DNA of 64,000 bases from a virus (Duplodnaviria; Caudoviricetes). Within the stretch, counting starts at the first letter, position 1; every line of letters begins with the position of its first letter. The stretch lies in the IMG/VR virus record IMGVR_UViG_3300014204_000134, positions 1 through 64,000 of that record. One strand, given 5' to 3'. This document shows positions 5,330 to 52,249 of this stretch, in pieces. The notes under the pieces were generated by a model. That model did not search any database, was not told where the DNA came from, and saw nothing but the letters and a program-made list of their open reading frames with translations. Position numbers and translations under genes: made by a program.

Positions 5330-5887
5330 ATCCGAATAGGTATTACGGGAACACATGGCACAGGTAAGACCTCGGTCTGTAAAATATTATCTGAAACTTT
5401 AAATATCCCTTATATTGAAGAACAAGCGAGAATATCTTTTAAAATATTAAACATACAAGATTTAGATATTGCTAGATTAGATAATGATAAATTTTCAAAT
5501 TTTCAACAAGACGTTTTGCGTAGACAAATTAATGAAGAACACAGACATAGGGATAATTTTTTAAGTGATAGGACTACACTTTGTAACTATGCTTATTATG
5601 AAGCAAATACAAAAGATTCTCCTAGAATTAGAATGGGATATCAAGAAATTGCTTTAAATAATTTTATGTTTGGTTATGATTTAGTAATTTATGTTCCAAT
5701 AATCTTTGGATTAATTTTAGATGGAGTTAGAAATAAAGGTGAAGATTATAGATATAAAATAGACTGTATAATACAAAATTATTTAAATTTTAATAAAAAT
5801 GTTTATAAACTAAAATCAGAAGGAATAGAAAACAGAGTTAATGAACTAACTGAAGTGATTAACAAATGGAAAACAAAATTAATTTAA
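5330..5887 (+). CDS. P-loop nucleotide kinase (AAA_28/NadR-type), ATC start
   Basis: (M)RIGITGTHGTGKTS Walker A lies upstream of the track start 5516; SDRT and DGVR motifs; in-frame TGA at 5321; SD AAGGAG. Confidence 0.8.
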   Translation: MRIGITGTHGTGKTSVCKILSETLNIPYIEEQARISFKILNIQDLDIARLDNDKFSNFQQDVLRRQINEEHRHRDNFLSDRTTLCNYAYYEANTKDSPRIRMGYQEIALNNFMFGYDLVIYVPIIFGLILDGVRNKGEDYRYKIDCIIQNYLNFNKNVYKLKSEGIENRVNELTEVINKWKTKLI

Positions 5888-6066
5888 ACCACCTCAAAAC
5901 TATTTATTCCCGAATCATTGACTTAGAAGATAGGGGTCTACCTTTTGAGTGGCACAAACTAAAACCACTTTATAAATTAGAAAACCAAATTCTTAAAGGT
6001 TATCAGTTAACCAAAGAAGATATTATCAGAAATAAACTTGATAAATATGGAGGACTAAATGGGTAA
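5866..6066 (+). CDS. hypothetical protein
   Basis: Track ORF. Confidence 0.5.
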   Translation: MENKINLNHLKTIYSRIIDLEDRGLPFEWHKLKPLYKLENQILKGYQLTKEDIIRNKLDKYGGLNG

Positions 6067-6259
6067 GAAAATACCTGAATCAGAACGTAAATTAAGAAAT
6101 ATTAAACGAGAAAAATATAAAACAAGTACAGATTGTATTGCCTGTTTAAAAAATACTATAGGATGTGATAGGGGTAGATTGTACGTGAGTAGGCTTTTAC
6201 CTGGAAGAGCATATAAGTGTGTACCATGTTTCAAATAAAAAAACTTAGGAGGAAATATA

Positions 6260-6490
6260 TTGAATAGTAGATTATATATTAAAGAATCAGACGAATACAG
6301 TTTAGTATTAGATTGGAATTATAACGATCTAGATGAAACAATAAAAAACTATAAAAAAGATAATAATGAAAAAATATTTTATATGGCAATACAAGATAAC
6401 GAAGACGATTTATGTATAGGTTTAACTTTAGAAGGTATGCAAAAACTACAAAATCACATTGATGAGATGATTAAATATATCATAAATTGA
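6260..6490 (+). CDS. hypothetical protein
   Basis: SD AGGAGG + TTG. Confidence 0.55.
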   Translation: MNSRLYIKESDEYSLVLDWNYNDLDETIKNYKKDNNEKIFYMAIQDNEDDLCIGLTLEGMQKLQNHIDEMIKYIIN

Positions 6491-6527: not shown

Positions 6528-6860
6528 GTGATTTATATTAGTATTGATAAAGACATGATTGAAACAATGATTATTTCAGAATTACATAAAGCAGAAAAGA
6601 AATTTAAACCATTTAATTCAGGTCATGAAGGTTGGGCAATTATTAAGGAAGAAATAGAAGAAATGCAAGAAATATTATATGGTATAGATTATTATATGGA
6701 TGCAATATGGAATTACGTTAGAGAAAATTCAACAACACAACAATTATTTCATGCACAAAAAATGTATGATGTTACTCTAGATATTATTAAGGAAGCAATT
6801 CAAGTTGCTGCTATGTGTAAAAGATTTCAGAAGGATTTAGGTACAGGGGAGATAAAATAA
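6528..6860 (+). CDS. MazG-like all-alpha NTP pyrophosphohydrolase-like protein
   Basis: HEGWAIIKEEIEE...EAIQVAAMC. Confidence 0.55.
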   Translation: MIYISIDKDMIETMIISELHKAEKKFKPFNSGHEGWAIIKEEIEEMQEILYGIDYYMDAIWNYVRENSTTQQLFHAQKMYDVTLDIIKEAIQVAAMCKRFQKDLGTGEIK

Positions 6861-6884: not shown

Positions 6885-7295
6885 ATTTTAAAATGGTTTA
6901 AAAATAAATTAAAACAGTGGTTAGATATTATTGAATTAGAAGAAAATACTAGAGATAATTTCTTTTCTATAGATAGACTTAATGGACAAATGGCACAACA
7001 AAAAAACCTTATAGATATTAAATTATCTCATAATGAACAACTAATTAAATCATTTCTTGCAACGTGTAAAACAGGATATGATTTAGGAGTATCAAATTAT
7101 CATAAAAATTGGTGTGTTTTTGTCAAACAGGGTAAAAATCAAGATTTTATAAAATTCATTGATTTAAGCGATATGACAATTGAAGAAATAAGGCATTTTG
7201 AAAAACAATTAGATGCAATAAATCAAAATAAACAGAAAAGATATTATTATATTGATGCTCCAATGGGGATTAAAGATCATTTTATGTATAAATAG
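6885..7295 (+). CDS. hypothetical protein (ATT start)
   Basis: Frame open from in-frame TGA at 6876; SD AGGTGA; N-terminus (M)LKWFKNKLKQWL. Confidence 0.55.
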   Translation: MLKWFKNKLKQWLDIIELEENTRDNFFSIDRLNGQMAQQKNLIDIKLSHNEQLIKSFLATCKTGYDLGVSNYHKNWCVFVKQGKNQDFIKFIDLSDMTIEEIRHFEKQLDAINQNKQKRYYYIDAPMGIKDHFMYK

Positions 7296-7307
7296 GGGGA
7301 TAATTAA

Positions 7308-7619: not shown

Positions 7620-7982
7620 ATGATAGGAGGAAAATTATTGGATAATAAATGTTCTAATGAAGAAATAAATGTTTATTTAAAAAATAGACAAGAATCAGAA
7701 ATTATACAAAAGATAGATAAATTAATGGAAGAAATTGAAAGCAAATTTGATTGTTTTAGTATTATATATTTAGATTACTGGAGAGGAAAAATCATAAAAG
7801 AAATAATGTATCAAAAAGTAAAAGATATACTTAATAAATTTACTCAAAAAGAATTATTAGAATATAATGAAATGGCAAAAATGTTTACAGATAGTAATTG
7901 TTGTTTTAGTTTTTATAATGTTGCACGAATAGTACATACTGAAATTATAAATATTTTATATCCAAAGGAGGTTTTACAATAG
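7620..7982 (+). CDS. hypothetical protein
   Basis: Track ORF; true start is probably the TTG after SD AGGAGG. Confidence 0.6.
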   Translation: MIGGKLLDNKCSNEEINVYLKNRQESEIIQKIDKLMEEIESKFDCFSIIYLDYWRGKIIKEIMYQKVKDILNKFTQKELLEYNEMAKMFTDSNCCFSFYNVARIVHTEIINILYPKEVLQ

Positions 7983-8182
7983 AAAATTTAATATCAAACA
8001 AACGAGTTGAAAGAATGGAAGTATTTTGGAATAGTGATATACCTAAAAAATATAATAGAGATCAATTAATTGAGTTTGCCAGAGATGATATTGAAATTTT
8101 ATTGAGAGAACGAAATGAAATGGCAAAAATATTAGATTTACTTAATGTGATTGAAAATCATTTTAATGGGGAGGAAAAGTAA
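7979..8182 (+). CDS. hypothetical protein (ATA start overlapping upstream TAG)
   Basis: SD AAGGAGG; ATAG overlap; 67 aa. Confidence 0.5.
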   Translation: MENLISNKRVERMEVFWNSDIPKKYNRDQLIEFARDDIEILLRERNEMAKILDLLNVIENHFNGEEK

Positions 8183-11129: not shown

Positions 11130-11342
11130 ATACTTAAAATAAACACAATTGTTAACAAGGGTGGAGAAAGAAAAGAACTATCTAAAATTAAAGATTTTAA
11201 TTGTACTAATTGTGGAAATGATAGTTTTTTATTGACTTGTAAAATAAAAATTATTAAATTAGGTAATGATGAAAATTTGAGAATTAAAGCAATGTACCCT
11301 AAATGTAGTATATGTGGAACTGAATTTCCTGAAGTATTTTAA
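11130..11342 (+). CDS. Zn-ribbon protein (ATA start, not in track)
   Basis: SD AGGAGG; CTNCG...CSICG; in-frame TAA at 11112. Confidence 0.6.
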   Translation: MLKINTIVNKGGERKELSKIKDFNCTNCGNDSFLLTCKIKIIKLGNDENLRIKAMYPKCSICGTEFPEVF

Positions 11343-14692: not shown

Positions 14693-14721
14693 TTGACAAA
14701 ATTAGTAAAATATGATATAAT
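14693..14721 (+). promoter_or_regulatory. sigma-A type promoter
   Basis: TTGACA-17 nt-TATAAT with extended TG. Confidence 0.8.
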
Positions 14722-14915
14722 GCAGGTATGTTTCTATAAAGGAGTGATAAATATCGCACATAAACAAAATAATATTATTAGTAGTTTAATTAATCTCTTA
14801 GTACTAGCATTTATTACTATTAACGCACTATTACTAGCAATATCAGTTACGGGATTAAATTATAAATTCTTTAAATATATTTTTCCTGGTATTAATTATT
14901 AAAGAAGGTGATTAG

Positions 14916-16544
14916 ATAGCAAGCTGGCAACAAAAGGAACCCAAAGAAGAATTTTTTATATTTGATAATATAGAAGAAAAATTACGATGTATATACGGAA
15001 TTGATAATCTAAATGAGTGGTTAAAACCTAGCAAAAAATCAGTACATAACCCATTTTTATTAGACAACATAAAAGAAGTTGCAAAAAAATTAATTAAAGC
15101 AATTGAAAATAAAAATAATATCTGTATCAGCTATGATATAGATGCCGATGGGATTTGCGCAGGAACAACTTTATATAGATATTTAAATCATTTTATGGAC
15201 AATATTTCTTATATATATCATCAAAGAGAACAAGGACATGGTATTTCCGTCCAAGTTGTTCCAGAAGAAACAGATTTACTTTTAATATGTGATAGTAGTA
15301 CTTCTGAAACAGAAGCATGTAAAAGTCTTAATGAGAAAGGAATAGATATATGCATACTAGATCACCATCCTAAAACACAAGATAATCCCTTTGCACTAAT
15401 CGTTAATCCAAAATTTTGTACATATCCCAATAAGGATTTATCTGGAAGTGGAGTGGTCTATAAATTAATTCAAGTAATTGACGAATTAACTAGTAATGAT
15501 TATGCAAATAATTATATAGATCTTTGCGGTTTTGGAATTTATGGAGATGTAATGTCTATGACAGAACCAGAGAATAGATATTACGTTTATCAGGCAATAA
15601 AAAACATTAAAAATCCTGGCATTAAAGCATTGTTAAAATTGAAATTAAGTTTTGGTGGAAAAGTAGATTCTCAAACTATAGGATTTACAATAGTCCCAAC
15701 TATAAATGCTGCTGCTAGAATGGGATGCATAGAGAAAATAATTGATTTATTGCTAGAAGACAATTATGATAAATGTTTAATCTTAGCAAAAGAAGTAGTA
15801 AATTTAAATGAAGATAGAAAGAAAACTGAAGTAAAATTATATAAAAAAATTAAAGATAGAATAGATTTGTTACACAATATAATTTGTGTAAAAACAACAG
15901 AAAAAGATGAGATAAATAAAGGTTTCAATGGTTTAATCGCCACTAAAATTAGTGAAAAATATTCTAAACCTTCACTCGTCGTAAAATGTGAAGATGGGAT
16001 CTGTAGTGGGAGTGGTAGAAGTGTAAATGGAGTAAACTTTAAATCTATACTACAAAATACAAAACTGTGTGATTGGGTCAATGGACATGAGGGAGCTTTC
16101 GGAGTACAATTTAAAGAAGAAAATTTAGAGAAAATATATGAAGCAGTAAAAGATAAAATAAAATTCGATAAAGATAAAATATACTATTATGATTTAGAAT
16201 TAGAAGAAGACGAAATAGATTATGACTTAATAAAGAAAATAGAAGAATTTAATTTATTAAGCGGTAAAGACGCTGAAAGTACAAAATTTTTAATAAAAAA
16301 TTGTAGTGCAATAGATAGAAAAGTTCAAGGCAAACTTGAAGATACAATCAAAATTATATCAGACAAAATAAATTTTGTTAAATTTAGGACAAATGAAGAA
16401 TATGCAAAAGAATTAAATGAAGGTAAAAAATTTGATGTAATAGGAAGTTTAAAAATTAATAAATGGTTTAATAACACTAAAGGAATTAAGAGATGGCAAG
16501 AAGATTTGCAAGTATTTATTGAGGATTATAGAATTAGTGAATGA
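14916..16544 (+). CDS. recJ: RecJ-like ssDNA exonuclease (DHH family), ATA start
   Basis: DHH motif I YDIDADG lies upstream of track ATG 15195; ILDHH, INAAARM, SGRS, GHEGAFG; in-frame TAG immediately before ATA; SD AAGGTGA. Confidence 0.85.
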   Translation: MASWQQKEPKEEFFIFDNIEEKLRCIYGIDNLNEWLKPSKKSVHNPFLLDNIKEVAKKLIKAIENKNNICISYDIDADGICAGTTLYRYLNHFMDNISYIYHQREQGHGISVQVVPEETDLLLICDSSTSETEACKSLNEKGIDICILDHHPKTQDNPFALIVNPKFCTYPNKDLSGSGVVYKLIQVIDELTSNDYANNYIDLCGFGIYGDVMSMTEPENRYYVYQAIKNIKNPGIKALLKLKLSFGGKVDSQTIGFTIVPTINAAARMGCIEKIIDLLLEDNYDKCLILAKEVVNLNEDRKKTEVKLYKKIKDRIDLLHNIICVKTTEKDEINKGFNGLIATKISEKYSKPSLVVKCEDGICSGSGRSVNGVNFKSILQNTKLCDWVNGHEGAFGVQFKEENLEKIYEAVKDKIKFDKDKIYYYDLELEEDEIDYDLIKKIEEFNLLSGKDAESTKFLIKNCSAIDRKVQGKLEDTIKIISDKINFVKFRTNEEYAKELNEGKKFDVIGSLKINKWFNNTKGIKRWQEDLQVFIEDYRISE

Positions 16545-16556: not shown

Positions 16557-18755
16557 ATAGAATTCAATGAAAACATCATAGACTTACTTAAAAAAAGATA
16601 TTTTCTAAAAGATGAAAATGGTAATCTAATAGAAAATTCCTGGGAAGATATATGTAAAAGAGTATCAATAAATATTGCTAGTGCCGAAAAAACAGAAGAA
16701 TTACAAAATACATATGAAAAAATATTTTATGATAAAATGGTTAATTTAGAGTTCATTCCTTCTTCACCTACACTTTTTAATGCAGGAACTACACTTCAAC
16801 AATTATCTTCATGTTTTATTATTGATATTGAAGATAGTATGGAAGGTATAGCCGAAGCATGGAAAGAATGTTCTATAATCTTTAAAAGTGGAGGAGGAGC
16901 AGGATTTAATACAAGTAAAATTAGACCTAAAGGAACATTAGTAAGTACATCGAATGGAGAAGCATCAGGTGTTGTTTCTTTTATGACAATTTTTGATCAA
17001 ATTGTTGAAATTATTAAACAAGGGGGCAAAAGAAAAGGAGCACTAAAAATAGATTTAAATGAAAACCATCCAGAAATATTCGAATTTATACATTGTAAAG
17101 ATACTGATGGAATGCTAAAAAATATGAATATTTCTGTTTCAATTTCAGATAAATTTATGAATGCATTAATAAATGATGAAAATGTAAATTTAGAATTTAA
17201 TGGAACCGTTTATAAAACAATAAAAGCAAAAGATTTATGGGATGAAATAATTAATTCATCATGGAAATCAGGAGAACCAGGAATTAGTTTTAGAGATATA
17301 ATGAATGATGATAATAAAAATTCACATTTAGGTGAAATAAATAGTTCAAACCCTTGCCAAGAATTCGTTAATATACCATATTCTTCTTGTAATTTGGGTT
17401 CAATTAATTTAGAAAAAATTATAAAAGATAAGAAAATTGATTATAAATTACTTGAAGAAAATATACGAGTTGCAATAAGATTTTTAGACAATATGATAAC
17501 TGTTAATAAATTGCCGTTAAAAAAGATTGATGAAATTACTAAATTAATTAGACCTGTTGGATTGGGAACAATTGGATATGCAAATTTACTATTTTTATTA
17601 GAAATACCTTACAATTCAAAACAAGCATATAAAGTTACTGATAAATTATATGAATTTATAAAAAATATTGCAATAGATGAAAGTAAAAAATTAGCTGAAG
17701 AAAAAGGTATATATCCTGCATGGGAAGGTTCCATATGGCAAAAAGAAGATATTAAAATAAGAAATTGTAATCATATTAGTATTGCTCCTAATGGAAGTAT
17801 CGGTTTCATAGCAGATTCTACAGGTGGAATAGAATCTGAATACGCATTAGTTTATTATAGAACCACAAATGAAGGAACTAAATACTTTGTAGTAAATAAA
17901 ATATTTAAAGAAAAACTAAAGGAAATAAATTTATATACAGATGAATTATTACAAAAAATAGTAGATAATAATGGTTCTATTCAAAATATTGAAGAAATAC
18001 CTAGTAATATTCGTAAAGTATTTATTGTTTCTCATGATTTAACACCCAACGAACATTTAAAAACTTTATCAATAATAAATAAACATGTTGATCTTAGTAT
18101 TTCAAAAACGATCAATTTATCAAATTCCGCAACAAAAGAAGAAATAAGTGAAATTTATATTGAAGCATGGAAAAATAATATTAAAGGTGTTACTGTTTAT
18201 AGAGATGGTTCAAGAAAAAATCAGGTATTAAGTACTTCACAAAATAAAGATAATAAAATAAATAATTTACCTAGAGGTTATATATTACCTGCTTTAACTG
18301 AAACAAAAGGACATAGGATTAAATTGTCTACTGGTTGTGGTAATTTATGGTTAATGGTATTCACAGATGAAAATAATGATATTGTAGAAACATTCGTTAA
18401 TACTGGCAGTAAAGGAGGATGTACAATTTCTACTCAGGCAATGAGTAGATTAATGAGTTTATCATTAAGAGGTGGTATTTCATTTGAGGACGTAGTAGAT
18501 CAATTAGAAAGTGCTGGTAGTTGTCCTTCTTATCAATTTGCAAGAGGAAATGGAAGTAAAATAAGTTCTGGAAAATCATGTCCTAGTGCAATAGCAAAAG
18601 CACTTGAAAAATTGCAGAAAAAATTAAAGAAAGGAGAACAAATTAATACAATTGAAATAGAAGAAGAATTAAAATGTCCTGAATGTAATACAAAATTAAG
18701 ATTTATTGAAGGATGTAATCAATGTCCCAATTGTGGTTTTAGCAAATGTAATTAA
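16557..18755 (+). CDS. nrdJ: class II (B12-dependent) ribonucleotide reductase, ATA start
   Basis: LLKKRYFLKD N-terminus upstream of track ATG; SPTLFNAG, SSCF, NPCQE, KGVTVYRDGSR, TSCPD-like domain and C-terminal Zn ribbon; in-frame TGA at 16548. Confidence 0.85.
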   Translation: MEFNENIIDLLKKRYFLKDENGNLIENSWEDICKRVSINIASAEKTEELQNTYEKIFYDKMVNLEFIPSSPTLFNAGTTLQQLSSCFIIDIEDSMEGIAEAWKECSIIFKSGGGAGFNTSKIRPKGTLVSTSNGEASGVVSFMTIFDQIVEIIKQGGKRKGALKIDLNENHPEIFEFIHCKDTDGMLKNMNISVSISDKFMNALINDENVNLEFNGTVYKTIKAKDLWDEIINSSWKSGEPGISFRDIMNDDNKNSHLGEINSSNPCQEFVNIPYSSCNLGSINLEKIIKDKKIDYKLLEENIRVAIRFLDNMITVNKLPLKKIDEITKLIRPVGLGTIGYANLLFLLEIPYNSKQAYKVTDKLYEFIKNIAIDESKKLAEEKGIYPAWEGSIWQKEDIKIRNCNHISIAPNGSIGFIADSTGGIESEYALVYYRTTNEGTKYFVVNKIFKEKLKEINLYTDELLQKIVDNNGSIQNIEEIPSNIRKVFIVSHDLTPNEHLKTLSIINKHVDLSISKTINLSNSATKEEISEIYIEAWKNNIKGVTVYRDGSRKNQVLSTSQNKDNKINNLPRGYILPALTETKGHRIKLSTGCGNLWLMVFTDENNDIVETFVNTGSKGGCTISTQAMSRLMSLSLRGGISFEDVVDQLESAGSCPSYQFARGNGSKISSGKSCPSAIAKALEKLQKKLKKGEQINTIEIEEELKCPECNTKLRFIEGCNQCPNCGFSKCN

Positions 18756-19420: not shown

Positions 19421-19753
19421 ATAAATATATCAGCAACAACCAAACCTAAAAGACTAACCAAACGTCAAGAGGTAAAACTCTGGAAACAAAATAAACTTAA
19501 ATATCAAACTATTAAAAAACCACCTGAACCATCAATTAAAATCTATAAAAAATCAGAATCAGGTACAACTTTTACCAGAGGAAAAGTAGAAGAATCTAAA
19601 AAGAAATTATCTAAAAAGTTAGATATTATTCAAAAACGAAATGAGAAAAAAGAACGAGATACAGCATTATCTGTTAAAAAACAAGAAGATAAAGAAAATA
19701 TAAAATTGAAAATAGATAATATTATTAAACTATTCTACAAAACGTTCAAGTAG
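19421..19753 (+). CDS. Lys-rich hypothetical protein (ATA/ATT start, no ATG in frame)
   Basis: SD AAGGAGG; 110-codon open frame filling the gap after dut. Confidence 0.6.
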   Translation: MNISATTKPKRLTKRQEVKLWKQNKLKYQTIKKPPEPSIKIYKKSESGTTFTRGKVEESKKKLSKKLDIIQKRNEKKERDTALSVKKQEDKENIKLKIDNIIKLFYKTFK

Positions 19754-23242: not shown

Positions 23243-23602
23243 ATCAATAAGCGAGAAATTTTAGAAGCATTAATTAACTTTTTAGGTACAAAAGTTAGCA
23301 AACTAATTGACATATCTCAAAAAGCAGAAACACAAGTAATCAAAAATTATTATAATGGTCAAACAAAAGCGTCTATTGAAGTTAGTGAATTAATTATAAA
23401 TTATATCAGTTGTAAATGTCCTAAGAAACCAATTGAACAAAATGACTATATAAACTTAATTGAATCAATAAAGTATCTAAGAGAAGAATGTATTAAAGAG
23501 TCTATGAAAAATGAAGATGGATTATATGATGCATTTTTAAAAGGTAAAGAAGATTTATATAGTGAGATAAAAGAAATTCTAGAAGATTACTTATATATTT
23601 AA
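23243..23602 (+). CDS. hypothetical protein (ATC start, not in track)
   Basis: 119-codon frame; SD GGAAGTGGTG; no ATG/GTG/TTG near the 5' end. Confidence 0.55.
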   Translation: MNKREILEALINFLGTKVSKLIDISQKAETQVIKNYYNGQTKASIEVSELIINYISCKCPKKPIEQNDYINLIESIKYLREECIKESMKNEDGLYDAFLKGKEDLYSEIKEILEDYLYI

Positions 23603-23622: not shown

Positions 23623-24303
23623 ATAAATAAATTTAATTTTAATAATATTATAATAAAACAAATACCTAATTCAGAAGCAAAGAAAATTATTAAAAAATAT
23701 CATTATACACACACTTGTTCTAAAGCTACAATATCACTAGCGTTTTATTATAATAATCAACTATGTACAGTAATAGTTTATGGTCAACCAACTGGTAAAT
23801 ATTTAGCATCTTCTATATGGGAAGGTGGTAATGAAAAAGAATGTACGGAATTGTTAAGATTATTTTCTTTTGATTGGTGTCCTAAAAATATTGAAAGTTA
23901 TTGTATTGCACAAAGTATTAAATTCTTAAAAACAAATTATCCAAAAATAAAAATATTAGTATCTTACGCAGATGCTAGTGTGGGCCATGTAGGTTACATT
24001 TATCAAGCAAGTAATTGGTTATACATAGGAAATTCTAGTCCTGAACCAGAAATATTTATAGACAATATAAAAAGACACAGAAGAGATTTATATGATAAAT
24101 ATGGTACATCTAGTATTAAAAAATTAAAAGATATTTTAGGTGAAAAATTACAAATAGGAAAGAAAAATAAAAAATATAAATATATATACATATTAGGTAA
24201 TTCTAAAAAAGAACATAAAGAATTAATAATTAAATTAAAAGTAAAAATAATAAATGATTATCCAAAAGGAGACTTAAATTATTATAACATCAATGCATCC
24301 TAA
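23623..24303 (+). CDS. Mom-like adenine-modification (GNAT-fold) protein, ATA start
   Basis: EAKKIIKKYHY, ELLRL, ESYCI, SYAD...GHVGYIYQASNWLYIG; SD AGGAGTG. Confidence 0.8.
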   Translation: MNKFNFNNIIIKQIPNSEAKKIIKKYHYTHTCSKATISLAFYYNNQLCTVIVYGQPTGKYLASSIWEGGNEKECTELLRLFSFDWCPKNIESYCIAQSIKFLKTNYPKIKILVSYADASVGHVGYIYQASNWLYIGNSSPEPEIFIDNIKRHRRDLYDKYGTSSIKKLKDILGEKLQIGKKNKKYKYIYILGNSKKEHKELIIKLKVKIINDYPKGDLNYYNINAS

Positions 24304-24748: not shown

Positions 24749-25233
24749 TAAATATACTGCAAAATATACTTAAAAAAGGACATCCTATATTTGGTAAACC
24801 TGCCGAATCTGTAAAACCAAGAGTAATACTTAGTAGTTATATAAAAAATATTATTGCTGAAATGAGTGCAACAATAGATAAACAACAAGTAACTTTTAAA
24901 CATCAAATAGTAGGTCTAACAGCAAATCAAATTGGATATCCGGTAAGAATCATTTGTTTAAATACTGATTCAAAAATATTTATGATTAATCCTGCAATAG
25001 AAAAAGAAAAAGGAAAACAAATAAGTTTAGAGGGTTGCGGAAGTGTCGATGGCGTATTATGTGAAGTTGAAAGACCAAAATATATTGAAGTACATTTTTA
25101 TGATGAAAATGGCGAAGATTGGTGTGGTGAGTTTACTGATTTAAATGCTTGGGTAGTAGAGCATGAAATTGATCATTTAGACGGAATATTTATTACTGAT
25201 AAAGCAATAAGAATAATTAAATTAGAAGATTAA
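24745..25233 (+). CDS. def: peptide deformylase
   Basis: VGLTANQIG, INP, EGCGS, EHEIDHLDG. Confidence 0.9.
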   Translation: MINILQNILKKGHPIFGKPAESVKPRVILSSYIKNIIAEMSATIDKQQVTFKHQIVGLTANQIGYPVRIICLNTDSKIFMINPAIEKEKGKQISLEGCGSVDGVLCEVERPKYIEVHFYDENGEDWCGEFTDLNAWVVEHEIDHLDGIFITDKAIRIIKLED

Positions 25234-25235
25234 TT

Positions 25236-25520: not shown

Positions 25521-25532
25521 GAAGGTGGTAAT

Positions 25533-25877
25533 ATAAAAGATAAAGAACCATTATTTTCTATAACTAAAAAAGATTTTAAAGTAGATTACTATAAGGGTAG
25601 TGGTGCTGGAGGACAAAACAGAAACAAGAGAGAAACAGCAGTAAGAATTACTCATTTAGAATCTAATGCAGTTGGAGAATGTTGTGAACAAAGAAATCAA
25701 TTGCAAAATAAAAGGGTTGCATTTGATAGGTTAATTAGTTCAGAAAAATTTCAGGTTTGGTTCAAAAAGAAATGTGGAATTGAAATGTTGAGTAAAGAAG
25801 AAAAAAGAAAAATTGAAGAAGAAGTAAATAGGTTAATGGACGAAAAATATTTGAAAATTGAATATTATACACCATAG
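25533..25877 (+). CDS. stand-alone GGQ peptidyl-tRNA hydrolase / release-factor domain protein (ATA start, not in track)
   Basis: DFKVDYYKGSGAGGQNRNKRETAVRITH...CEQRNQLQNKRVAFDRL; 114 aa; SD AAGGTGG. Confidence 0.85.
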   Translation: MKDKEPLFSITKKDFKVDYYKGSGAGGQNRNKRETAVRITHLESNAVGECCEQRNQLQNKRVAFDRLISSEKFQVWFKKKCGIEMLSKEEKRKIEEEVNRLMDEKYLKIEYYTP

Positions 25878-25906: not shown

Positions 25907-26089
25907 ATAAATAAACACGAATTGCTATATAGTTATGAAGATGTAATAATTAATCAAAAGAAAATTGATAAATACTTAATTGATAATTTTGCTAAAATTG
26001 GTATTCCCCTTTTTAATTCTGATGGAAGTTATAGACATTTATTTGAAGTAATAAATGATTTAGAAAGTGTTTGGGACAAAATACAATAA
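25907..26089 (+). CDS. small protein resembling a tape-measure core motif (ATA start)
   Basis: KIGIPLFNSDGSYRHLFEVINDLESVWDKI; SD AAGGAG. Confidence 0.5.
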   Translation: MNKHELLYSYEDVIINQKKIDKYLIDNFAKIGIPLFNSDGSYRHLFEVINDLESVWDKIQ

Positions 26090-26757: not shown

Positions 26758-27417
26758 TTGATGATAGGAGGAATTGTTATAGAAGGAAATTGTTCTTATT
26801 GTAATAAATATGGGAAAATATTAAAATATAATAATATTTATTATTGCGAAAAACATTTTACTCAATTAAAAAGACATGGAAAAATATTAGAAAAAACCAG
26901 ATTAGACAAAAATAACTTAATAATGCATGATGATTATTTTGAAATTGTACTCAGAAATAATAAAAACGAAGATGTGGGACATACATTAGTATCAAATGAT
27001 AAGTTTGAAATAGTTACTAAATATAAATGGAGATTATCTAAAGGATATATTATTACCACAAATAAAAACGGTAAAAATATATTTCTTCATAGATTAATTT
27101 TAAATTTATTAGATACTCCAAATATATTAGTAGATCATACCAATCATAATCCTTTAGATAATAGGAATGAAAATATAAGAAAATGTACATATAGTCAAAA
27201 TAATATGAATTCACGAAAAGAAAAGGGAAATAAATCTAATATTACTGGAGTAGTTTGGGATAAAGCAAGAAATAAATGGAGAGTACAAATAAGAATTAAT
27301 GGGATTATGACCAATCTAGGAAGATATAATGATTTTAAAGAAGCAGCAAAAGTAAGATTAGAAGCTGAAAGAAAATATTTTGGAGAATTTGCTCCTCAGA
27401 AGGATGTGATAATATGA
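26758..27417 (+). CDS. HNH-AP2 homing endonuclease
   Basis: LHRLIL...VDHTNHNPLDNRNENIR...N; AP2 GVVWDKARNKWRVQI. Confidence 0.9.
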   Translation: MMIGGIVIEGNCSYCNKYGKILKYNNIYYCEKHFTQLKRHGKILEKTRLDKNNLIMHDDYFEIVLRNNKNEDVGHTLVSNDKFEIVTKYKWRLSKGYIITTNKNGKNIFLHRLILNLLDTPNILVDHTNHNPLDNRNENIRKCTYSQNNMNSRKEKGNKSNITGVVWDKARNKWRVQIRINGIMTNLGRYNDFKEAAKVRLEAERKYFGEFAPQKDVII

Positions 27418-29126: not shown

Positions 29127-29138
29127 GAAGGTGGTATA

Positions 29139-34045: not shown

Positions 34046-34588
34046 ATAAAAAATAAATACGAAATAATAGGAGATATAACTATAATATTTTTAAAAAGAA
34101 AAACTGGAGAAATATTAAAATGTTATATTGATACTGAAGATTTAGAAAGAGTTAAAAAACTAAATGTTTCTTGGTATTCAGTTTGGGATAAAGTTTTAGA
34201 AAGTTATTATGCAAGATGCACTCTTTATATTGAAACAACAGATGGTAAACCAAAATATAAAATGGTTTATTTACATAGATTAATTATGGAAGCAAAAGAA
34301 AATGATTATGTAGATCATAGAGATCATAAAACTCTAGATAATAGAAAAAATAATTTAAGAAAAACTACAAGTGAGATAAATACTAAAAATAGAAAAGGTG
34401 CAAATAGAAATACAACTACAGGACATAGAAATGTTTGTTATGTATCAGCAAAAGATGTTTATAGAGTACAATTACAAGTAAATAAAAAACGTAAACATTT
34501 TGGTGATTTTGATAATTTAGAAAATGCTGTATTTTGTGCAGAGTATAATAGAAGTAAATTAAAATCATACGGAGGAAGTTCTAATTGA
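34046..34588 (+). CDS. HNH-AP2 homing endonuclease (ATA start)
   Basis: (M)KNKYEIIGDITIIFL...IDTEDL; LHRLIM...VDHRDHKTLDNRKNNLR; in-frame TGA at 34037. Confidence 0.85.
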   Translation: MKNKYEIIGDITIIFLKRKTGEILKCYIDTEDLERVKKLNVSWYSVWDKVLESYYARCTLYIETTDGKPKYKMVYLHRLIMEAKENDYVDHRDHKTLDNRKNNLRKTTSEINTKNRKGANRNTTTGHRNVCYVSAKDVYRVQLQVNKKRKHFGDFDNLENAVFCAEYNRSKLKSYGGSSN

Positions 34589-34925: not shown

Positions 34926-35804
34926 ATAGATATAAATATAAATCTAGAAAATTTATGTGAAGAATATTTAAAAGAAAATATGAGTACAAGAAAATTATCT
35001 ATATTATTTAAATACAACAGGAAAATAATTCAAAGATTATTAAGAAATAGTAATAATAATGATGTACTAAATAAATTAGATAAATATATAAAAAATGTTG
35101 ATATAAATGAATTATGCATAGATTATTTAAATAAAAATATTTCTATGAAATACTTAATGGAAAAATATGATTGTGCTTCGTCTACTATATACAAAAAATT
35201 AAGACAAAGTAATAATAAAGATGTTCTAGAAAAATTAAAAAGAAAGAAAAGTAACATAATATATGTAGAAAACAATTTAATATATGTATTATATAAAAAT
35301 AATAAACATATATTTGATTTCTCAGAGAAATTATTAGAAAAACTAAAAAGATTTTATTGGACAGAAGGTACAAATGGTCATTTGCACACTTCTTATTATG
35401 ATAATAATGGTAAGCAAAAAATATTTAAATCATATTGGCTTGTTATTAATAAACCAAGTAAGGGTTTTGTTGTTGATCATATTAATAAAAATGAAAAAGA
35501 CAACAGAAAAGAAAATTTAAGATATGCTACAAAACAAACTAATAATATTAATAGAAATAAAAACAAAAATAATAAAAGTGGTTATAAAGGAGTGTACTTT
35601 GCAAAAAATATAGGTTTATATATTGCAAAAATACAAAAAGGAAAAGAAATAATATATTTGGGTTGTTATAATAATCCAAAGGACGCATATATTGCTAGAG
35701 CAAGAAAGGAATTAGAAATATATGGAGAATATGCAAGAATACAAGATGGTTTTGAATGGATTATAGAAGAATGGAAGAATATAAAAGAAGGTGAAAATAA
35801 TTAA
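34926..35804 (+). CDS. HNH-AP2 homing endonuclease with N-terminal HTH-like repeats (ATA start)
   Basis: VVDHINKNEKDNRKENLR; SGYKGV; the extended N-terminus completes an internal repeat (LENLCEEYLKEN / INELCIDYLNKN). Confidence 0.8.
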   Translation: MDININLENLCEEYLKENMSTRKLSILFKYNRKIIQRLLRNSNNNDVLNKLDKYIKNVDINELCIDYLNKNISMKYLMEKYDCASSTIYKKLRQSNNKDVLEKLKRKKSNIIYVENNLIYVLYKNNKHIFDFSEKLLEKLKRFYWTEGTNGHLHTSYYDNNGKQKIFKSYWLVINKPSKGFVVDHINKNEKDNRKENLRYATKQTNNINRNKNKNNKSGYKGVYFAKNIGLYIAKIQKGKEIIYLGCYNNPKDAYIARARKELEIYGEYARIQDGFEWIIEEWKNIKEGENN

Positions 35805-38800
35805 TAATTATGTTATTTATCATCTTCATGACGATCATTCAATATTAGATTCAGCAACAAAATATTGGATGTATATAGATAGAGTTAAAGAATTAGAGAT
35901 GAAAGCAATTGCATTTTCGTCACATGGTAACTGCTATAATTGGATATCTAAAAAACAAAGATGTGATAAAGAAGGAATTAAATATATCCATGCATGTGAA
36001 GTATATATCACAGAATCTTTAGAAGAGAAGATTCGTGATAATTACCATACAGTTCTTATAAGTAAAAATTGGGAAGGAGTTAAAGAGCTTAATAAATTAA
36101 TATCAAAAGCAAGTAATAAAGGTGATAATCATTTTTACTATGATCCTAGAATTAGTATTGATGAATTAATTAATACTAGTGACAATCTTTTAGTTACAAC
36201 TGCATGTTTAGCAAGCCCTTTATATAAAGGTAAAGATAAATCAATATATGATAAATATTTAAATTTCCTAATTGAAAATAAACATAGAGTATTCCTTGAG
36301 GTTCAGTACCATTCCTTTGATCAGCAGAAAGAGCACAATTTAAACTTATATGAATTACATAAAAAATACAATTTAAATTTAATCGCTGGTACTGACACAC
36401 ATAATCTCAATTCAGAATTAGCGGATGCAAGAAGAATATTGCAATTAAGTAAAAATATAAAATATGCAGAAGAAGAAACTTTTGATTTAAATTTAAAGAC
36501 ATACGATGAATTAGTAAATGCATTTAAAAAACAAGATGCCTTACCAGAAGAAATTTATCTTCAAGCAATTGAAAATACTAATCAATTATTAGATTTAGTG
36601 GAAGATTTTGAACTTGATACAACAAACAAATATCCTAGACTATATGAAAATGCAGAAGAAATATTTAAAAAGAAAATTAATGAAGGTGTTATAAAAAGAA
36701 AAATAAACAATTATGATATCGAAGAAAGAAAGAAATACTTTAATAGAATTAAAGAAGAACTTGAAGTATATAAAATATGTGATGCCATAGATTATATTTT
36801 ACTACAAGAAAATATTACTTCTTGGGCAAGAGAAAATGGTATTGATCCAGGCCCAGGTAGAGGATCGGTTACAGGTAGTGAAAACGCTTATATTTTAGGT
36901 GTAACTGATATGGATTCGATTAAACATAATTTAAACTTTACTCGATTTTTAAATCCTGATCGTATATCTTTATCGGACATAGATATAGACTACCCACCTT
37001 CACGGAGAAACGAAGTAATAGATTATGTAGCAAACATACCAGGAATATATTTTTCTGAAATTGTAACTTTTAATACCATTAATTATAGGGGTGCTATAAG
37101 AGATACGGGGAGAGCATTAAATATACCTTTATCTGAAGTTGATGAAATAGCAAAAAACTATGAGGGGAATGAAGATTATTACAGAAAGCAATATCCAGAA
37201 TTATTTAAATATGTAGACTTACTTAAAGGAGTTAATGTTAGTATTGGTTCTCATCCTTCAGGATTTATTGTAAGTCCAATAAACATCGAAGAAAATATTG
37301 GAACATTTACAACTTCTACTTGTAGATACCCTGTTTCATGTTGTGATATGAAAGCTGTAGATTCAATAAATTTTGTAAAATTAGATATTCTTGGACTTGA
37401 CAATATTGAAATAATTAATGAAACATGTAAACTAGCAAATATTGAACGAGTTACACCTGATAATGTTGATATTCATAATGATAAAGTATGGAATAGTATT
37501 AAAGAAAATGGATTATCAATATTTCAAATGGAAAGTAAATTTGCTCATGATTCACTATTAAAAGCATTAGAATCATATAATAAAATAAAAGAAACAAATA
37601 AAAATATTACTCGTATTGACTTGATGAGTATGGTAAATGGAGCAATACGTCCTTCTGGAGAATCTTTTAGAGATGCTTTAATTAGTGGTGAATTTAACAA
37701 TAATGGTCATCCCGCATTAAATAATTTACTTTCAAATACACAAGGTTTTCTAGTATATCAAGAATCTATCATTCAATTTTTAGTTGAATTTTGTGGATTC
37801 ACAGCAGCTCAAGCCGATTCTGTAAGGCGTAAAATAGGAAAAAAATTAGGTACTGATGATGTTATTCCAGAAATTAAAGAACGATTTATTAAAACAATGC
37901 AGGATAAATATAATTTATCAAACAAAGAATTAGAAACAATTGTTGAACCATTTTTACAAATTATATCAGATGCTAGTTCATATGGGTTTTCACTAAATCA
38001 TAGTCAACCATATTCATATATTGGTTATATTTGTGGATATTTACGTTATTATTATCCCCTTGAGTTTCTTACAATAGTATTAAATATTAATAAAGATAAT
38101 ATTGAAAAAACAAGTGAAATAATTAAATATGCAAACTCTAAAAGCATTACCATTCAACCAATTAAATTTCGCAAATCCCAAGCAAAATATTCAATGGATA
38201 AAGAAACAAATAGTATTTTTAAAGGTATCGAATCTATTAAATTTTGTAATTCTCAGATTGCCAAAGAACTCTACCAATTAAAAGATAATCAGTACAGTTC
38301 ATTTATTAATCTTTTAATTGACATCGAAAATACTTCTTGTAACTCTCGACAATTAGAAATTCTTATTACTCTTAACTTTTTTGATGAATTTAGTAATAAC
38401 CAAAAACTATTAAACATTTATAATTTATTTAAAAAATTATACGGCAAAAAACAAATCAAAAAAGAAAAAGTATTAGAACTAGGTATTGAAGAATCGACCG
38501 TTAAACAATATTCAAGAGAAACAGCAAAATCATATTTAGACGTTGATATAATTGCCATACTTAAAGATTATGAAAATAAAATACCGAACGAATCAATTAA
38601 TATTATTGATCAAATATCTTTTGAAAAAGAAAATCTCGGATATTCTCAAACTACAATACCACAAATAAATAATAATATTTTCATCGTTGTAAATACAAAT
38701 TTAAAATACACTCCTGTAGTAACTATATATTGTCTTCAAAATGGAGCAGAAGAAAAATATAAAATACCAAAAAAATATTTTAATCAAAAAGAAAAAATAT

Positions 38801-38970
38801 TAGACATTGGTTCTATTATTGCAGTTTCCAAAAAAGAAAAGCGTCCAAGATATAGAAAGACTGAAAATGGATTTGAGAAAATATCTGGAGAGTTTGAAGG
38901 TTATATCACGGACTATTATATTGCTTCAACAGACAAACTCAACAATTACATCAAAACTCTAACCCCATAA
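35791..38970 (+). CDS. dnaE: DNA polymerase III alpha subunit
   Basis: PHP HLHDDHSILD; GPGRGS; RFLNPDR; DIDID; HPSG; KLDILGL; YQE; FSLNHS. Confidence 0.95.
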   Translation: MKIINNYVIYHLHDDHSILDSATKYWMYIDRVKELEMKAIAFSSHGNCYNWISKKQRCDKEGIKYIHACEVYITESLEEKIRDNYHTVLISKNWEGVKELNKLISKASNKGDNHFYYDPRISIDELINTSDNLLVTTACLASPLYKGKDKSIYDKYLNFLIENKHRVFLEVQYHSFDQQKEHNLNLYELHKKYNLNLIAGTDTHNLNSELADARRILQLSKNIKYAEEETFDLNLKTYDELVNAFKKQDALPEEIYLQAIENTNQLLDLVEDFELDTTNKYPRLYENAEEIFKKKINEGVIKRKINNYDIEERKKYFNRIKEELEVYKICDAIDYILLQENITSWARENGIDPGPGRGSVTGSENAYILGVTDMDSIKHNLNFTRFLNPDRISLSDIDIDYPPSRRNEVIDYVANIPGIYFSEIVTFNTINYRGAIRDTGRALNIPLSEVDEIAKNYEGNEDYYRKQYPELFKYVDLLKGVNVSIGSHPSGFIVSPINIEENIGTFTTSTCRYPVSCCDMKAVDSINFVKLDILGLDNIEIINETCKLANIERVTPDNVDIHNDKVWNSIKENGLSIFQMESKFAHDSLLKALESYNKIKETNKNITRIDLMSMVNGAIRPSGESFRDALISGEFNNNGHPALNNLLSNTQGFLVYQESIIQFLVEFCGFTAAQADSVRRKIGKKLGTDDVIPEIKERFIKTMQDKYNLSNKELETIVEPFLQIISDASSYGFSLNHSQPYSYIGYICGYLRYYYPLEFLTIVLNINKDNIEKTSEIIKYANSKSITIQPIKFRKSQAKYSMDKETNSIFKGIESIKFCNSQIAKELYQLKDNQYSSFINLLIDIENTSCNSRQLEILITLNFFDEFSNNQKLLNIYNLFKKLYGKKQIKKEKVLELGIEESTVKQYSRETAKSYLDVDIIAILKDYENKIPNESINIIDQISFEKENLGYSQTTIPQINNNIFIVVNTNLKYTPVVTIYCLQNGAEEKYKIPKKYFNQKEKILDIGSIIAVSKKEKRPRYRKTENGFEKISGEFEGYITDYYIASTDKLNNYIKTLTP

Positions 38971-39860: not shown

Positions 39861-39941
39861 AATTTTTGTTTATAATTTGATTCATATTGACTATAACTTT
39901 ATAAAAAAGTATAATTATTTAAAAATTTAGGAAGTGAAAAC

Positions 39942-44812: not shown

Positions 44813-45520
44813 TTATTTTGCCATCCTTGATAGCATTACCCAAAATAACCACTGAGGAGTAGCAAGAGAAACATTACTAATATGTGATTCAGGATTTTGA
44901 ATAAGTGGTTTTCCATTAATGTCTAAAATTTGAGTTAATTTATTAATTGCTTCTGCACCTTTTTGTCCCATCCAATCTTCATAAACGGGCATTGACATAT
45001 CATCACCACCGATTAATAAAATTTCTGTTCTTACATCATTAACAAAATCATCCCAAGTTTTACCATGTTGTTGAAAATAACCTATAGGATCGGTATGATC
45101 TGTTTCATGCCAAGTTTCACTAACCCAAGCATGAGTATTTAGTTGATTAATATTTGTAGGATCAAAACTATATCTAATACAAATATCTACTGTTAACCAT
45201 ATTGTTCTATTCCATGTTTCTTGAAATTTTGTTTCATCGGAAAAATTACACATCTCAATCGACAAGAAACGAATATTAGCAGATTTACAACCATGCCATG
45301 CAGTTAAATTTTCAGGTAATATTTGAGTAATAGAATCATAATCTACAAAATAATGTGCTGAAGCACCACGATCTGCATTATGAAAATATGTATTTTCGTT
45401 AGTATCACTCGCATCAGGAGTTGCAGTTTCATGAATTGTTAAACCAATAGGACTTAAAGTAGTTCCTGAATGATTTAATCCATCTGGTAAAAAATCTTGA
45501 ATTATACTATATCCTTGAAT
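44813..45520 (-). CDS. N-acetylmuramoyl-L-alanine amidase (Amidase_2) endolysin, ATT start
   Basis: LTIHETATP, ASAHYFVD and AWH lie upstream of track start 45265; SIEMC, TH, DHTDP; TAG immediately before ATT; SD AGGTGA. Confidence 0.85.
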   Translation of the reverse strand: MQGYSIIQDFLPDGLNHSGTTLSPIGLTIHETATPDASDTNENTYFHNADRGASAHYFVDYDSITQILPENLTAWHGCKSANIRFLSIEMCNFSDETKFQETWNRTIWLTVDICIRYSFDPTNINQLNTHAWVSETWHETDHTDPIGYFQQHGKTWDDFVNDVRTEILLIGGDDMSMPVYEDWMGQKGAEAINKLTQILDINGKPLIQNPESHISNVSLATPQWLFWVMLSRMAK

Positions 45521-51100: not shown

Positions 51101-51862
51101 AATTTCCTGAATATTGACATAGTTTTCCGAAACGAGTTGACTAGGGCATTCACTCTTAAATTCACTTGATATAATTATTGAATTAATCACATCTTGATCC
51201 GAATATGTAATACTTAAATCCGAAATATTATCAACTGTGAATGAATGTTGTGAAATTTCACTATCTGAAAAAAATTGTTTGAATTTAAAAGTTTCTTCCT
51301 CGTAGCAAATTACACATAAACAACTTTCACAGAGAAGTTTTAATAACTCATTCCAGGTAGAATATAAATTTAAATCACATACAGGTATTACTATACCCGT
51401 GTTATATATACTTGTTAATTCACCAGAAGGGGTGCATTCTTGGAACGCACGCAAAATAATTTCTTCAATACGATAATTTAATAATACTTCTTTATTTGTA
51501 ATTGCTTTTTTAAATACCTGTATATAAGATTCAGCAGAAAGAGAAAGTTGCTTACCTTTAACTTTCATATTATTTTTATTAAGGAAACCGCGAAAAATTT
51601 CCGAATAAGTATTGTTATACCCTGCAAGAATTTTAACTTTAGTTTTTGATAAATCTGAATTAAAATATCCAGTTGAATTATCTACTGTTAATGATGCTGT
51701 GCTTGGATCAATATTAGATAATATATAGTTACTTCCTGTAGTTTGGATAGTAACCTCAATTGATAAAACATAATCCGATATATCAGTTGCAAATGTATCT
51801 CCAATTAATACTTGATAGTTTTTTATTTTAAAAGTTTTTGCTGTTTCAGTTTGTATTGTCAA
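48140..51862 (-). CDS. minor tail / baseplate-fibre protein
   Basis: 1240 aa after distal-tail and TMP genes; SIAKYG...ISNDYI hub-like part; Gly/Ser/Thr beta-repeat C-half. Confidence 0.75.
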   Translation of the reverse strand: MTIQTETAKTFKIKNYQVLIGDTFATDISDYVLSIEVTIQTTGSNYILSNIDPSTASLTVDNSTGYFNSDLSKTKVKILAGYNNTYSEIFRGFLNKNNMKVKGKQLSLSAESYIQVFKKAITNKEVLLNYRIEEIILRAFQECTPSGELTSIYNTGIVIPVCDLNLYSTWNELLKLLCESCLCVICYEEETFKFKQFFSDSEISQHSFTVDNISDLSITYSDQDVINSIIISSEFKSECPSQLVSENYVNIQEIKNESYTIVAGHENRITTDEKPLWKEMELDDDGEYKYKTNNSVVILSDPNFGTLSPISDIDIENGYIYLTSNLAVGTLVGVNYQYQTMALLPLQERLYTLEITNNSASGNNAISFDTATNITILCSAHKNVSEYNQGEEVEFSTIPAANTVHLVNTIEQKDSKIRFTLKNNTSDIITISTLILRGQPIASFQPIKAKFTNQVSIAKYGEKTLEISNDYIVSENQAKVLGQFLYQNLYEPIQKLSIPATSLLAYLILGKCTVVESSTGISDDYLMSTIKHTMQENTWNTQVDCIPYPTVATGLVADWLDRSKTGDYIGSSLFNSTIPTAPNSLLIQYNTNVDTSKNLALSWQYLPNDLNPIDGFELFISVGSSSGVYTVDYEDDIHTSICSDARGIILRNLPLKETIITTDYYKYYGFAIRTYRTVHTTIDAEGKLYSPIVYFYSDYKTIDQYTEYTTTASIEDSISGTIDYSTISVIDKLIKGLETGKTYDSSLRFDDFKGMRVVYGGIDRFTAGQIAPGVYGINIKDGNDNDALTADQTGITMGGLSLKSTGIELLKANAKYYFGTDNGIKIQGQISGVWYDVFKVDETIGNLNILGTLTAGSIVSNSSIIGGTISIGSLNNIFKVDSSGIYLGNASYASAPFRVSMAGNLIATSATISGAISGSSISGSNITSTNITASTIIGNTIQSDTLNPGTITLSSSINKILLDTNSSNKTFVIQKYESGSWVDKFWTDTLGNLSLAGNLLGGKTSYIDSTGGFFLGQDSSVWKLKIGNSTSYLDWDGSSLNIAGNVNVTGEFSTNRSANDLWINMIEGSLIGYQSSTATYNLYSLYSNSSLYYGNLSLYRRGSINKEVWINVTDNVNIGSSYGTSIFLTPGITSGSGYPSYDINKNYIGIAGSLIIGNSYYFSTTPLQNGLIVEGNVAIGTTTPGAYKLNVNGSFNSLSGYINGSEIATQSWVTNIINYCIQLLEQYTDDIMAAHVAAYH

Positions 51863-51877
51863 ATATAAGTATCACCT

Positions 51878-52249
51878 CTATTCTTCTTCTAGTGTAAATG
51901 ACATAGTATAATAAGGAGTAAAACTAGAATCGCATATTTCTTCTAAATCTATAGTGTCGTTAGTAATTTGTGTCGTATAACTACTACTACTCGTAGGGTA
52001 TCCGGTAAATGTAATTGAATTTGAAGAAGTAGATGTAAAAAGAGTAAGTAAATTATCTTTATTTGCGGAAGATAATAGATCGAACTCTAGTAAAAAACAG
52101 TTTTTTATTATACTAAATTCAGACCACATTTTACCATTAAGTGCTCGAACAGAAGAATAACCTATACGTTTAACCGAAGGTTTGATATTTGATAATAAAT
52201 CATCTATATTAATAGAAGAGGTAGTACTATTACTAAGGGTTATACTTAT
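51878..52249 (-). CDS. distal-tail-like protein (ATA start)
   Basis: VRALNGKMW...MSFTLEE; ATA directly after the upstream in-frame TAA; SD GGAGGTGG. Confidence 0.65.
   Translation of the reverse strand: MSITLSNSTTSSINIDDLLSNIKPSVKRIGYSSVRALNGKMWSEFSIIKNCFLLEFDLLSSANKDNLLTLFTSTSSNSITFTGYPTSSSSYTTQITNDTIDLEEICDSSFTPYYTMSFTLEEE

Follow-up and report, generated by a model that had tools for sequence, protein, structure and literature searches.

The window analysed here is a 64,000-nucleotide stretch that forms the first 64 kb of the linear, 100,452-bp IMG/VR virus record IMGVR_UViG_3300014204_000134. The record has a guanine-cytosine (GC) content of 27%, is 69% complete according to CheckV, and probably represents a siphovirus of a low-GC Firmicute. 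The subject of this report is a set of its genes that appear to start at ATA, ATT, or ATC (together ATH; AUH in the mRNA) instead of the canonical ATG, GTG, or TTG. The ATH codons are preceded by Shine-Dalgarno-like (SD) runs such as AGGAGG, AAGGAG, AGGTGAT, and similar. A first-pass annotation had listed such starts at 17 coordinates in the window, and at all 17 an ATA, ATT, or ATC codon is positioned behind a strong SD at normal spacing (Table 1). None of the listed sites has an ATG, GTG, or TTG between the ATH codon and the preceding in-frame stop. The aligned SD spacing is mostly 7-9. Downstream of the ATH codon, the distance to the first canonical codon is five codons at 25907 and ranges from 12 to 95 codons at the remaining listed sites. 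At 7979, the ATA overlaps the TAG of the open reading frame (ORF) 7620..7982 as ATAG, in agreement with the earlier description.

A stop-to-stop analysis of the ORFs of the whole genome identified 25 ORFs that extend for 20 codons or more before a first canonical codon is reached. An SD followed by ATH is present within the first 20 codons of 18 of these ORFs, whereas approximately 7% per ORF would be expected from gene interiors (P ~1e-15). Two more of the 25 have GGGGG-type SDs, which were missed by the exact SD matcher. The pairing of the SD with the anti-SD sequence is -10 kcal/mol or stronger at 19 of 20 ATH sites, compared with 0.5% of interior positions. The excess over the interior expectation and the SD pairing together exclude chance as the origin of these sites.

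Beyond the window, the record has further clear ATH cases at 74127, 82347, 98683, and 99251 (genome positions). Probable further cases in the window are at 358, 6537, 24754 (def), 26779, 31254, and 35797/35800 (DnaE), and in several of them no canonical codon is available apart from a GTG that forms part of the SD. As many as nine additional cases, including def, DnaE, and a likely Dit-type tail protein, are ambiguous in that their sole canonical codon is either an unsupported upstream one or an SD-internal GTG. The starts that can be assigned in the 100-kb record comprise 78 ATG, 24 TTG, 4 GTG, and at least 20 ATH, out of approximately 140 genes. It is thus confirmed, at the level of sequence analysis, that about one gene in six really starts at ATH, including those of the ribonucleotide reductase, RecJ, and the endolysin. 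In the SD screen, the candidate genes for the major capsid protein, portal, and terminase were read as starting at ATG or TTG.

Table 1. ATH-started genes and other features of the record (window coordinates unless stated otherwise; SD followed by aligned spacing; canonical codons are ATG, GTG, and TTG).
Feature	Position	Strand	Start	SD; spacing	Remarks
P-loop kinase (AAA_28)	5330..5887	+	ATC	AAAGGAG; 8	AAA_28 profile position 1 at residue 2; first canonical start at codon 62, behind Walker A
ORF	6537..6860	+	ATT, probable	AAGGGGTGAT, then ATT	Called GTG is inside SD; G001 orthologue has ATT at same codon behind AAGGAGG, first canonical codon 13 codons in
Hypothetical protein	6885..7295	+	ATT	AGGTGA; 9	First ATG 35 codons in
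Small protein	7979..8182	+	ATA (ATAG overlap)	AAAGGAGGT; 7	First ATG 12 codons in
Small Cys-rich protein	11130..11342	+	ATA	AGGAGGT; 7	First canonical codon 34 codons in
Extended -10 sigma-A-type promoter	14693..14721	+			Upstream of recJ-nrdJ; TTGACA, 17 nt, TG, TATAAT; 12/12 matches
RecJ-like exonuclease	14916..16544	+	ATA	AGGTGAT; 7	DHH, DHHA1, and RecJ_OB domains; DHH at residues 69-208; first ATG at codon 93
Class II ribonucleotide reductase (RNR), NrdJ-type	16557..18755	+	ATA	AAGGTGA	RNR large subunit; Ribonuc_red_lgN (RNR all-alpha) profile positions 2-76 at residues 2-80; first ATG at codon 60
Basic hypothetical protein	19421..19753	+	ATA	AAGGAGGT; 7	Lone canonical codon is 95 of 110
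Hypothetical protein	23243..23602	+	ATC	GGAAGTGGTGA	First ATG 87 codons in
Mom-family DNA modification protein	23623..24303	+	ATA		Mom profile 2-192 at residues 9-200; first canonical start at codon 76
Peptide deformylase (def)	24754..25233	+	ATA, probable	AAGGAGTGAT	GTG at 24745 inside SD; Pep_deformylase profile position 2 at residue 3 of ATA-started protein; G001 orthologue has ATG one codon away
Stand-alone RF-1 (GGQ) domain protein	25533..25877	+	ATA		RF-1 profile 5-68 at residues 8-70; first canonical start at codon 56, behind GGQ motif
60-aa protein	25907..26089	+	ATA	GAAGGAGAA; 7	Next TTG, 5 codons on, too distant from SD
HNH_3/AP2 endonuclease	26779..27417	+	ATA, probable, ambiguous	AGGAGG; 7	Upstream TTG and ATG both without SD
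Hypothetical protein	29139..29486	+	ATC (or ATA at 29136)	AGGAAGGTGGT; 7 (4 for ATA)	First canonical codon 47 codons in
HNH_3 endonuclease	34046..34588	+	ATA	AAAGGAG; 9	First ATG at codon 72
HNH_3 endonuclease	34926..35804	+	ATA (or ATT at 34923)	GAGGTG	First ATG 18 codons in
DNA polymerase III alpha (DnaE)	35797..38970	+	ATA 35797 or ATT 35800, probable	AAGAAGGTGA	Called GTG 35791 inside SD; PHP, DNA_pol3_alpha, finger, and HHH_6 domains; PHP profile from residue 7 of ATT-started protein
Large serine recombinase	39915-41636				Resolvase, Recombinase, and Zn_ribbon_recom domains
Amidase_2 endolysin	44813..45520	-	ATT		Start supported by homologues (see text)
123-aa late-operon protein	51878..52249	-	ATA	AAGGAGGTG	First ATG 40 codons in; strongest SD of ATH set, -18.1 kcal/mol; upstream stop-to-start gap 0 nt
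Tyrosine integrase and ToxN	genome 64-84 kb (L009)				Late half of the record

The earlier claims that core genes are among those started at ATH, and that catalytic motifs precede the first canonical start, are both borne out. The former follows from the domains and homologues of NrdJ, RecJ, and the endolysin, and the latter from the Walker A motif of the kinase and the GGQ motif of the RF-1 protein. For Mom, RF-1, and Amidase_2, the distance from the ATH codon to the domain start is within 8-25 residues. When nine full-length homologues were aligned with the amidase, their Met1 residues all coincided with the ATT. The public call of the phage's own amidase is 146 aa long (P0002) and begins 89 residues into the Amidase_2 domain, past the N-terminal catalytic His residues described in the first-pass annotation; P0018 and P0042 are similarly truncated amidase calls. 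Amidase orthologues on five contigs from other samples were also called truncated, yet they start at ATA behind an SD. Homologues of NrdJ with 49-53% identity are ATG-started at or near the position of the ATA, those of L002/L131 within one residue, the L002 protein being one residue longer. The gene names given in the first-pass annotation hold for the kinase, recJ, nrdJ, mom, the GGQ protein, and the amidase; however, the designation of the gene at 52249 as a tail gene is unproven, as its product has no family match.

The nrdJ start has the same structure in the three distinct relatives that were read (L001/L127, L128, and L138), in each of which AAGGTGA is followed by six bases and ATA, as in the window. 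In L128, the SD and ATA of the recJ start recur at an ORF upstream of nrdJ that is matched to recJ by position only. A contig from a groundwater metagenome of another study contains an identical 566-bp piece over the recJ start, among the matches listed, which also include identical pieces from the run that is the probable source of the record. The relative G001 (25.8 kb), the NrdJ of which is 83% identical to that of the window, also starts nrdJ at ATA. Its orthologue of the kinase gene starts at ATT, where the window has ATC, and that of the ORF at 19421 starts at ATT, where the window has ATA, and is without any canonical codon. Two neighbouring genes start at ATA in G001 and at ATG in the window, whereas def starts at ATG in G001 and probably at ATA in the window. 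The orthologue starts of the window phage (G000 in the pair and screen comparisons) and G001 are ATC/ATT, ATT/ATT, ATG/ATA, ATG/ATA, ATA/ATA, ATA/ATT, and ATA/ATG. The recJ gene of G001 is interrupted by approximately 1.27 kb that is absent from the window (window 15142-15147; L001:3316-4585). The G001 ORF over the 5' part of recJ extends for 318 codons, and an intron or homing-endonuclease insertion is possible.

The ratio of nonsynonymous to synonymous substitution rates (dN/dS) upstream of the first canonical codon is 0.06-0.43 at dS 0.36-1.9 in six comparisons. The values are 0.23 for the 62 N-terminal codons of the kinase, 0.06-0.12 for the 60 of NrdJ, and 0.18-0.28 for the 85 of the amidase, indicating that the stretch between the ATH and the first canonical codon is under purifying selection, that is, translated. 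Independent assemblies from other samples and studies contain the same ATH codons, which, together with the purifying selection, excludes the sequencing errors and the decaying prophage with relaxed selection that the first-pass annotation had named as dangers to its reading. The ORFs are intact, their dN/dS is well below 1, and their SDs are stronger than average.

The genetic code of the phage appears to be standard. At the internal ATA codons of nrdJ, the aligned residues are Ile and Val (positions occupied by I, V, or L) and not Met, so there is no codon reassignment, and the reading of ATA as Met was rejected. The reading of TGA as Trp (NCBI table 4) was rejected because, under table 11, TGA terminates long ORFs; TGA, TAA, and TAG all serve as stops in long ORFs. 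The numerous TGA "upstream stops" are the TGA inside GGTGAT and GGAGTGA SDs.

The ATH starts differ from the canonical starts of the same record in their surroundings. The median SD pairing is -12.2 kcal/mol at ATH starts, as opposed to -10.5 kcal/mol at canonical ones (P = 3e-4), although each canonical gene was represented by its best SD candidate. The threshold of -10 kcal/mol is attained or exceeded by 95% of the ATH and 60% of the canonical starts. The median gap to the upstream stop is 12.5 nt for ATH as opposed to 33 nt for canonical starts (P = 0.006). Whereas 19 of 20 ATH starts are within 40 nt of the upstream stop, about a third of the canonical starts are more than 50 nt away from it. 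The proximity of the stops suggests that ribosomes arrive at the ATH starts by translational coupling. ATA is used at 13 of the 20 clear ATH starts, although ATT is the commonest Ile codon in gene interiors (ATA 42%, ATT 53%, ATC 4%). The dominance of ATA fits an origin from ATG by G-to-A transition. No CTG start is needed to explain any ORF.

The first-pass annotation had proposed that the phage may encode a variant or inhibitor of initiation factor 3 (IF3) or an altered initiator tRNA. This proposal finds no support in the searches of the 69%-complete record. ARAGORN detected no tRNA genes, either within the window or across the full 100 kb, and the profiles of IF3_C, IF3_N, and IF1 (PF00707, PF05198, and PF01176) gave no match at E <= 1 in the whole record; IF3_C (PF00707) also had no match in G001 or G002. 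Among the scanned ORFs of at least 50 codons, no translation-related Pfam family was found beyond the peptide deformylase and the RF-1 domain; the Pfam scans left out one ORF of 3681 codons, and ten proteins were scanned against PHROGs only. The two genes (window 24754-25877) are one gene apart and both are probably ATA-started. As a cause of the ATH starts, def and the GGQ protein were rejected, because both act after initiation and def itself is probably ATA-started.

The density of ATH starts was compared with that of controls in a crude screen, based on exact-match SDs and ORFs of at least 60 codons. ORFs that can start only at ATH account for 12.5% in the window phage (GC 27%) and 17% in its close relative G001 (GC 25%). 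In contrast, they account for 0.4% in the complete 173-kb phage G002 (GC 28%), 1.7% in the first 50 kb of Clostridium phage c-st (GC 26%), and 1.9% and 0.9% in 200 kb each of the Clostridium-type chromosomes G004 (GC 33%) and G005 (GC 31%). AT bias alone is therefore insufficient to account for the habit, given the low values in controls of equal GC. One fermentation-metagenome phage contig (L130:1511-3570) encodes an ATG-started NrdJ that is 53% identical to that of the window. Two of its 24 ORFs can be started only at ATT or ATC, behind GAGGTGAT and GGAGGTG; the ATH habit may reach beyond the close clade. In one of the 20-kb loci L102-L111 of the chromosome G004, a 555-codon Clostridium ORF (6396..4729, - strand) has GAAAGGAG followed after 8 nt by ATT as its second codon. 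It reaches a canonical codon only after 60 codons and is likely to have a natural ATT start in a Clostridium chromosome.

The most probable explanation, to which we assign a probability of about 0.62, is that the ATH codons are genuine but weak near-cognate starts, anchored by the SD, assisted by coupling, and tolerated in Firmicutes without the need for a phage factor. The ordinary initiator tRNA would read ATH with a mismatch at the third position (AUA > AUU ~ AUC). The weak codon would be compensated by a long SD-antiSD helix at optimal spacing, often extending into GGTGAT, and by the short distance, about 0-40 nt, that separates the start from the stop codon of a translated gene upstream. 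Reporter work shows that the initiation apparatus of Clostridia-type hosts accepts AUH far better than that of Escherichia coli. Reporters in Clostridium sporogenes and Clostridium butyricum gave 5-100% of the AUG output with AUU, AUA, and AUC, the value varying with the 5' UTR, compared with 0.04-3% in E. coli (PMC9680021), and Staphylococcus aureus has four natural AUA or AUU starts, all behind extended SDs, with 10-30% of the AUG output (PMC13009471). The premise of the first-pass annotation that IF3 rejects AUH rests on E. coli, whereas the Clostridium and S. aureus data show appreciable output from AUH. The extreme AT bias would favour ATG-to-ATA transitions, which would be only mildly costly if the host tolerates AUH. 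They would become fixed mostly in operon-internal genes for enzymes, nucleases, and small accessory proteins, and ATG and ATH would interchange freely among close relatives.

Several points weigh against this explanation. Firmicute tolerance alone does not explain the density of 12.5-17%, as opposed to 0.4-1.9% in the controls, and the whole genome of S. aureus has only four such genes (PMC13009471); a cause specific to the clade or its host may therefore contribute. The excess of coupling depends on the simple gene model constructed here. Furthermore, 31% of the phage genome, about 45 kb, is missing from the record, and most of the phage proteins have no known family. The additional component might be relaxed start-codon proofreading, the idea of the first-pass annotation, caused by a variant of IF3, 16S rRNA, or initiator tRNA of the host, or by a phage protein, as yet unrecognised, that targets the initiation complex. 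In the full form of this idea, which we regard as unlikely, AUN would be a complete family of starts, employed at the frequency of UUG and readily exchanged with AUG, with third-position discrimination largely lost in the host lineage or through a phage factor. Relaxed proofreading would account for a density that exceeds that of controls matched in GC and SD use by a factor of 10-40, for ATH being about as frequent as TTG (at least 20 versus 24), and for close relatives swapping ATG and ATH as if the change were nearly neutral. Core genes are started at ATH, clearly so for NrdJ, RecJ, and the endolysin and probably for DnaE, and the contig L130, from another phage with a related NrdJ, has its two candidates. 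However, def and RF-1 were the only relevant finds in 100 kb, with neither IF3 nor IF1 nor tRNA. The candidate major capsid, portal, and terminase genes have kept ATG or TTG, and the stronger SDs and closer coupling of the ATH starts imply that they act as weak codons and not as the equals of ATG. Relaxed proofreading is accordingly given a minor share of our belief.

A designed regulatory set, the "translational lock" of the first-pass annotation, appears more doubtful still. The weak starts would sense the IF3-to-ribosome ratio or the growth state, and the genes would be held down in the lysogen or early infection and released later, in analogy to the autoregulation of infC, a scheme to which we attach little probability. 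All four nrdJ variants have the ATA in spite of a dS of 0.36-0.6, the phage is probably temperate, and the relative efficiency of the AUA start of S. aureus ccpN rises from about 10% to 30% with the richness of the medium (PMC13009471), all of which would fit regulation. However, the set of ATH genes differs among close relatives, with ATG/ATA swaps in three of seven orthologue pairs, and the genes are in both the + strand replication and accessory block and the - strand late block, and form no coherent functional class. It is hardly credible that the ATH starts are artefacts or remnants, that is, sequencing or assembly errors, start-loss pseudogenes of a dying prophage, or ATA read as Met, even though the record is a metagenomic assembly and the public gene calls are truncated. 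The recurrence of the codons across assemblies, the intact and selected ORFs with their SDs kept, the Ile alignment of internal ATA, and the use of all three stops refute it as far as sequence data can.

The host is inferred to be a low-GC Firmicute of the Clostridia type. SPbeta-like Bacillus phages have portal proteins with 33% identity to that of the window phage, and Clostridium phage c-st gives a weaker portal match. Relatives retrieved through the portal protein contain YonB, YonD, and YomU-type (SPbeta-type) structural families; they are small contigs with the structural module only, a region in which the window phage also has canonical starts. A DNA-level search of INPHARED gave a sole match, the dUTPase, to SPbeta phages. 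The nearest sequences to the amidase are from Clostridia, and its best alignment to genome contigs, at 50%, is to Desulfotomaculaceae and Pelotomaculum metagenome-assembled genomes, which is not diagnostic of the host. The portal protein had no match among the genome contigs or the 399 sampled Clostridia genomes. Near-identical DNA is present in landfill and groundwater metagenomes. An archaeal (Asgard) host was rejected on account of the murein amidase, SPOR domain, DnaE, SPbeta-like portal, and sigma-A-type promoter. The perfect extended -10 promoter before recJ points to a bacterial host and implies that the supposed TTG-started ORF at 14693 probably represents no more than the -35 box. The real ORF upstream of recJ may be one of 49 codons at 14753, which has an SD and ATC.

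The record probably carries two recombinases, a serine recombinase and a tyrosine integrase, and on their account the phage is probably temperate. Between window positions 6000 and 25999, contigs of four metagenome runs connect remote parts of the accessory region, among the matches listed; for example, a junction of 7569 and 9974 with a 12-nt filler and one of 10851 and 22760 each occur in three or four runs. Strains thus differ in whole gene cassettes that have been gained or lost. The 3,681-codon ORF of the late region (- strand, 53525-64000 and on to genome position 64570) is larger than the tape-measure/lysin protein of SPbeta, its presumed counterpart.

Individual near-cognate starts are established in bacteria. 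E. coli infC and pcnB start at AUU and are subject to discrimination by IF3 (cited in PMC13009471 and PMC2268962). They share with the starts described here the third-position near-cognate codon, the initiator tRNA, and presumably an efficiency governed by IF3. However, in E. coli such starts are confined to a few individual genes, follow a regulatory logic, and reach an efficiency of 1-3% or less; autoregulation through IF3 is a feature of infC. The AUA and AUU starts of S. aureus and Bacillus subtilis (infC, ccpN, cvfC1, and citZ) are more similar, with a long SD at a fixed spacing; there too the codon lowers the output and gene callers miss the genes (PMC13009471). S. aureus has four such genes per genome, whereas here there are at least 20 of approximately 140, in a phage, mostly operon-internal, and with turnover between relatives. 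The Clostridium reporters display the same tolerance of AUH as is invoked here, but in engineered and not natural genes, and CUG also worked in them (PMC9680021), whereas the window phage has no need of it. Mollicutes (NCBI table 4) and animal mitochondria (table 2) are likewise AT-rich and frequently initiate at ATA, ATT, and ATC. They read TGA as Trp, mitochondria also read ATA as Met, and their initiation is reduced or leaderless; in the window phage TGA is a stop, internal ATA is Ile, and initiation is led by the SD. Stop-codon recoding in phages is comparable as a departure of a phage lineage from standard reading that defeats gene callers. Such recoding reportedly involves suppressor tRNA or release-factor genes and alters the meaning of a codon. 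Here, the meaning of codons is unchanged, and a recoding-type gene was not found in the 69%-complete record. No publication on dense AUH starts in a phage came up in the literature searches.

Standard gene callers accept only ATG, GTG, and TTG, and about 15-20% of the genes of this clade, roughly one in six, would therefore be truncated or missed by them, while other calls fall on the GTG within AGGTGA-type SDs. The phage and its relatives provide a natural dense set of at least 20 AUH leaders, with matched ATG and ATA versions in close relatives, which may serve to quantify the extent to which SD length, spacing, and coupling offset a weak start in Firmicutes. The contrast between the clade and the controls makes differences in start-codon fidelity among Clostridia lineages testable. 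If AUN were indeed a full family of starts, bacteria would offer a natural parallel to initiation in mitochondria and Mollicutes, but one that combines SD-led mRNAs with the standard code.

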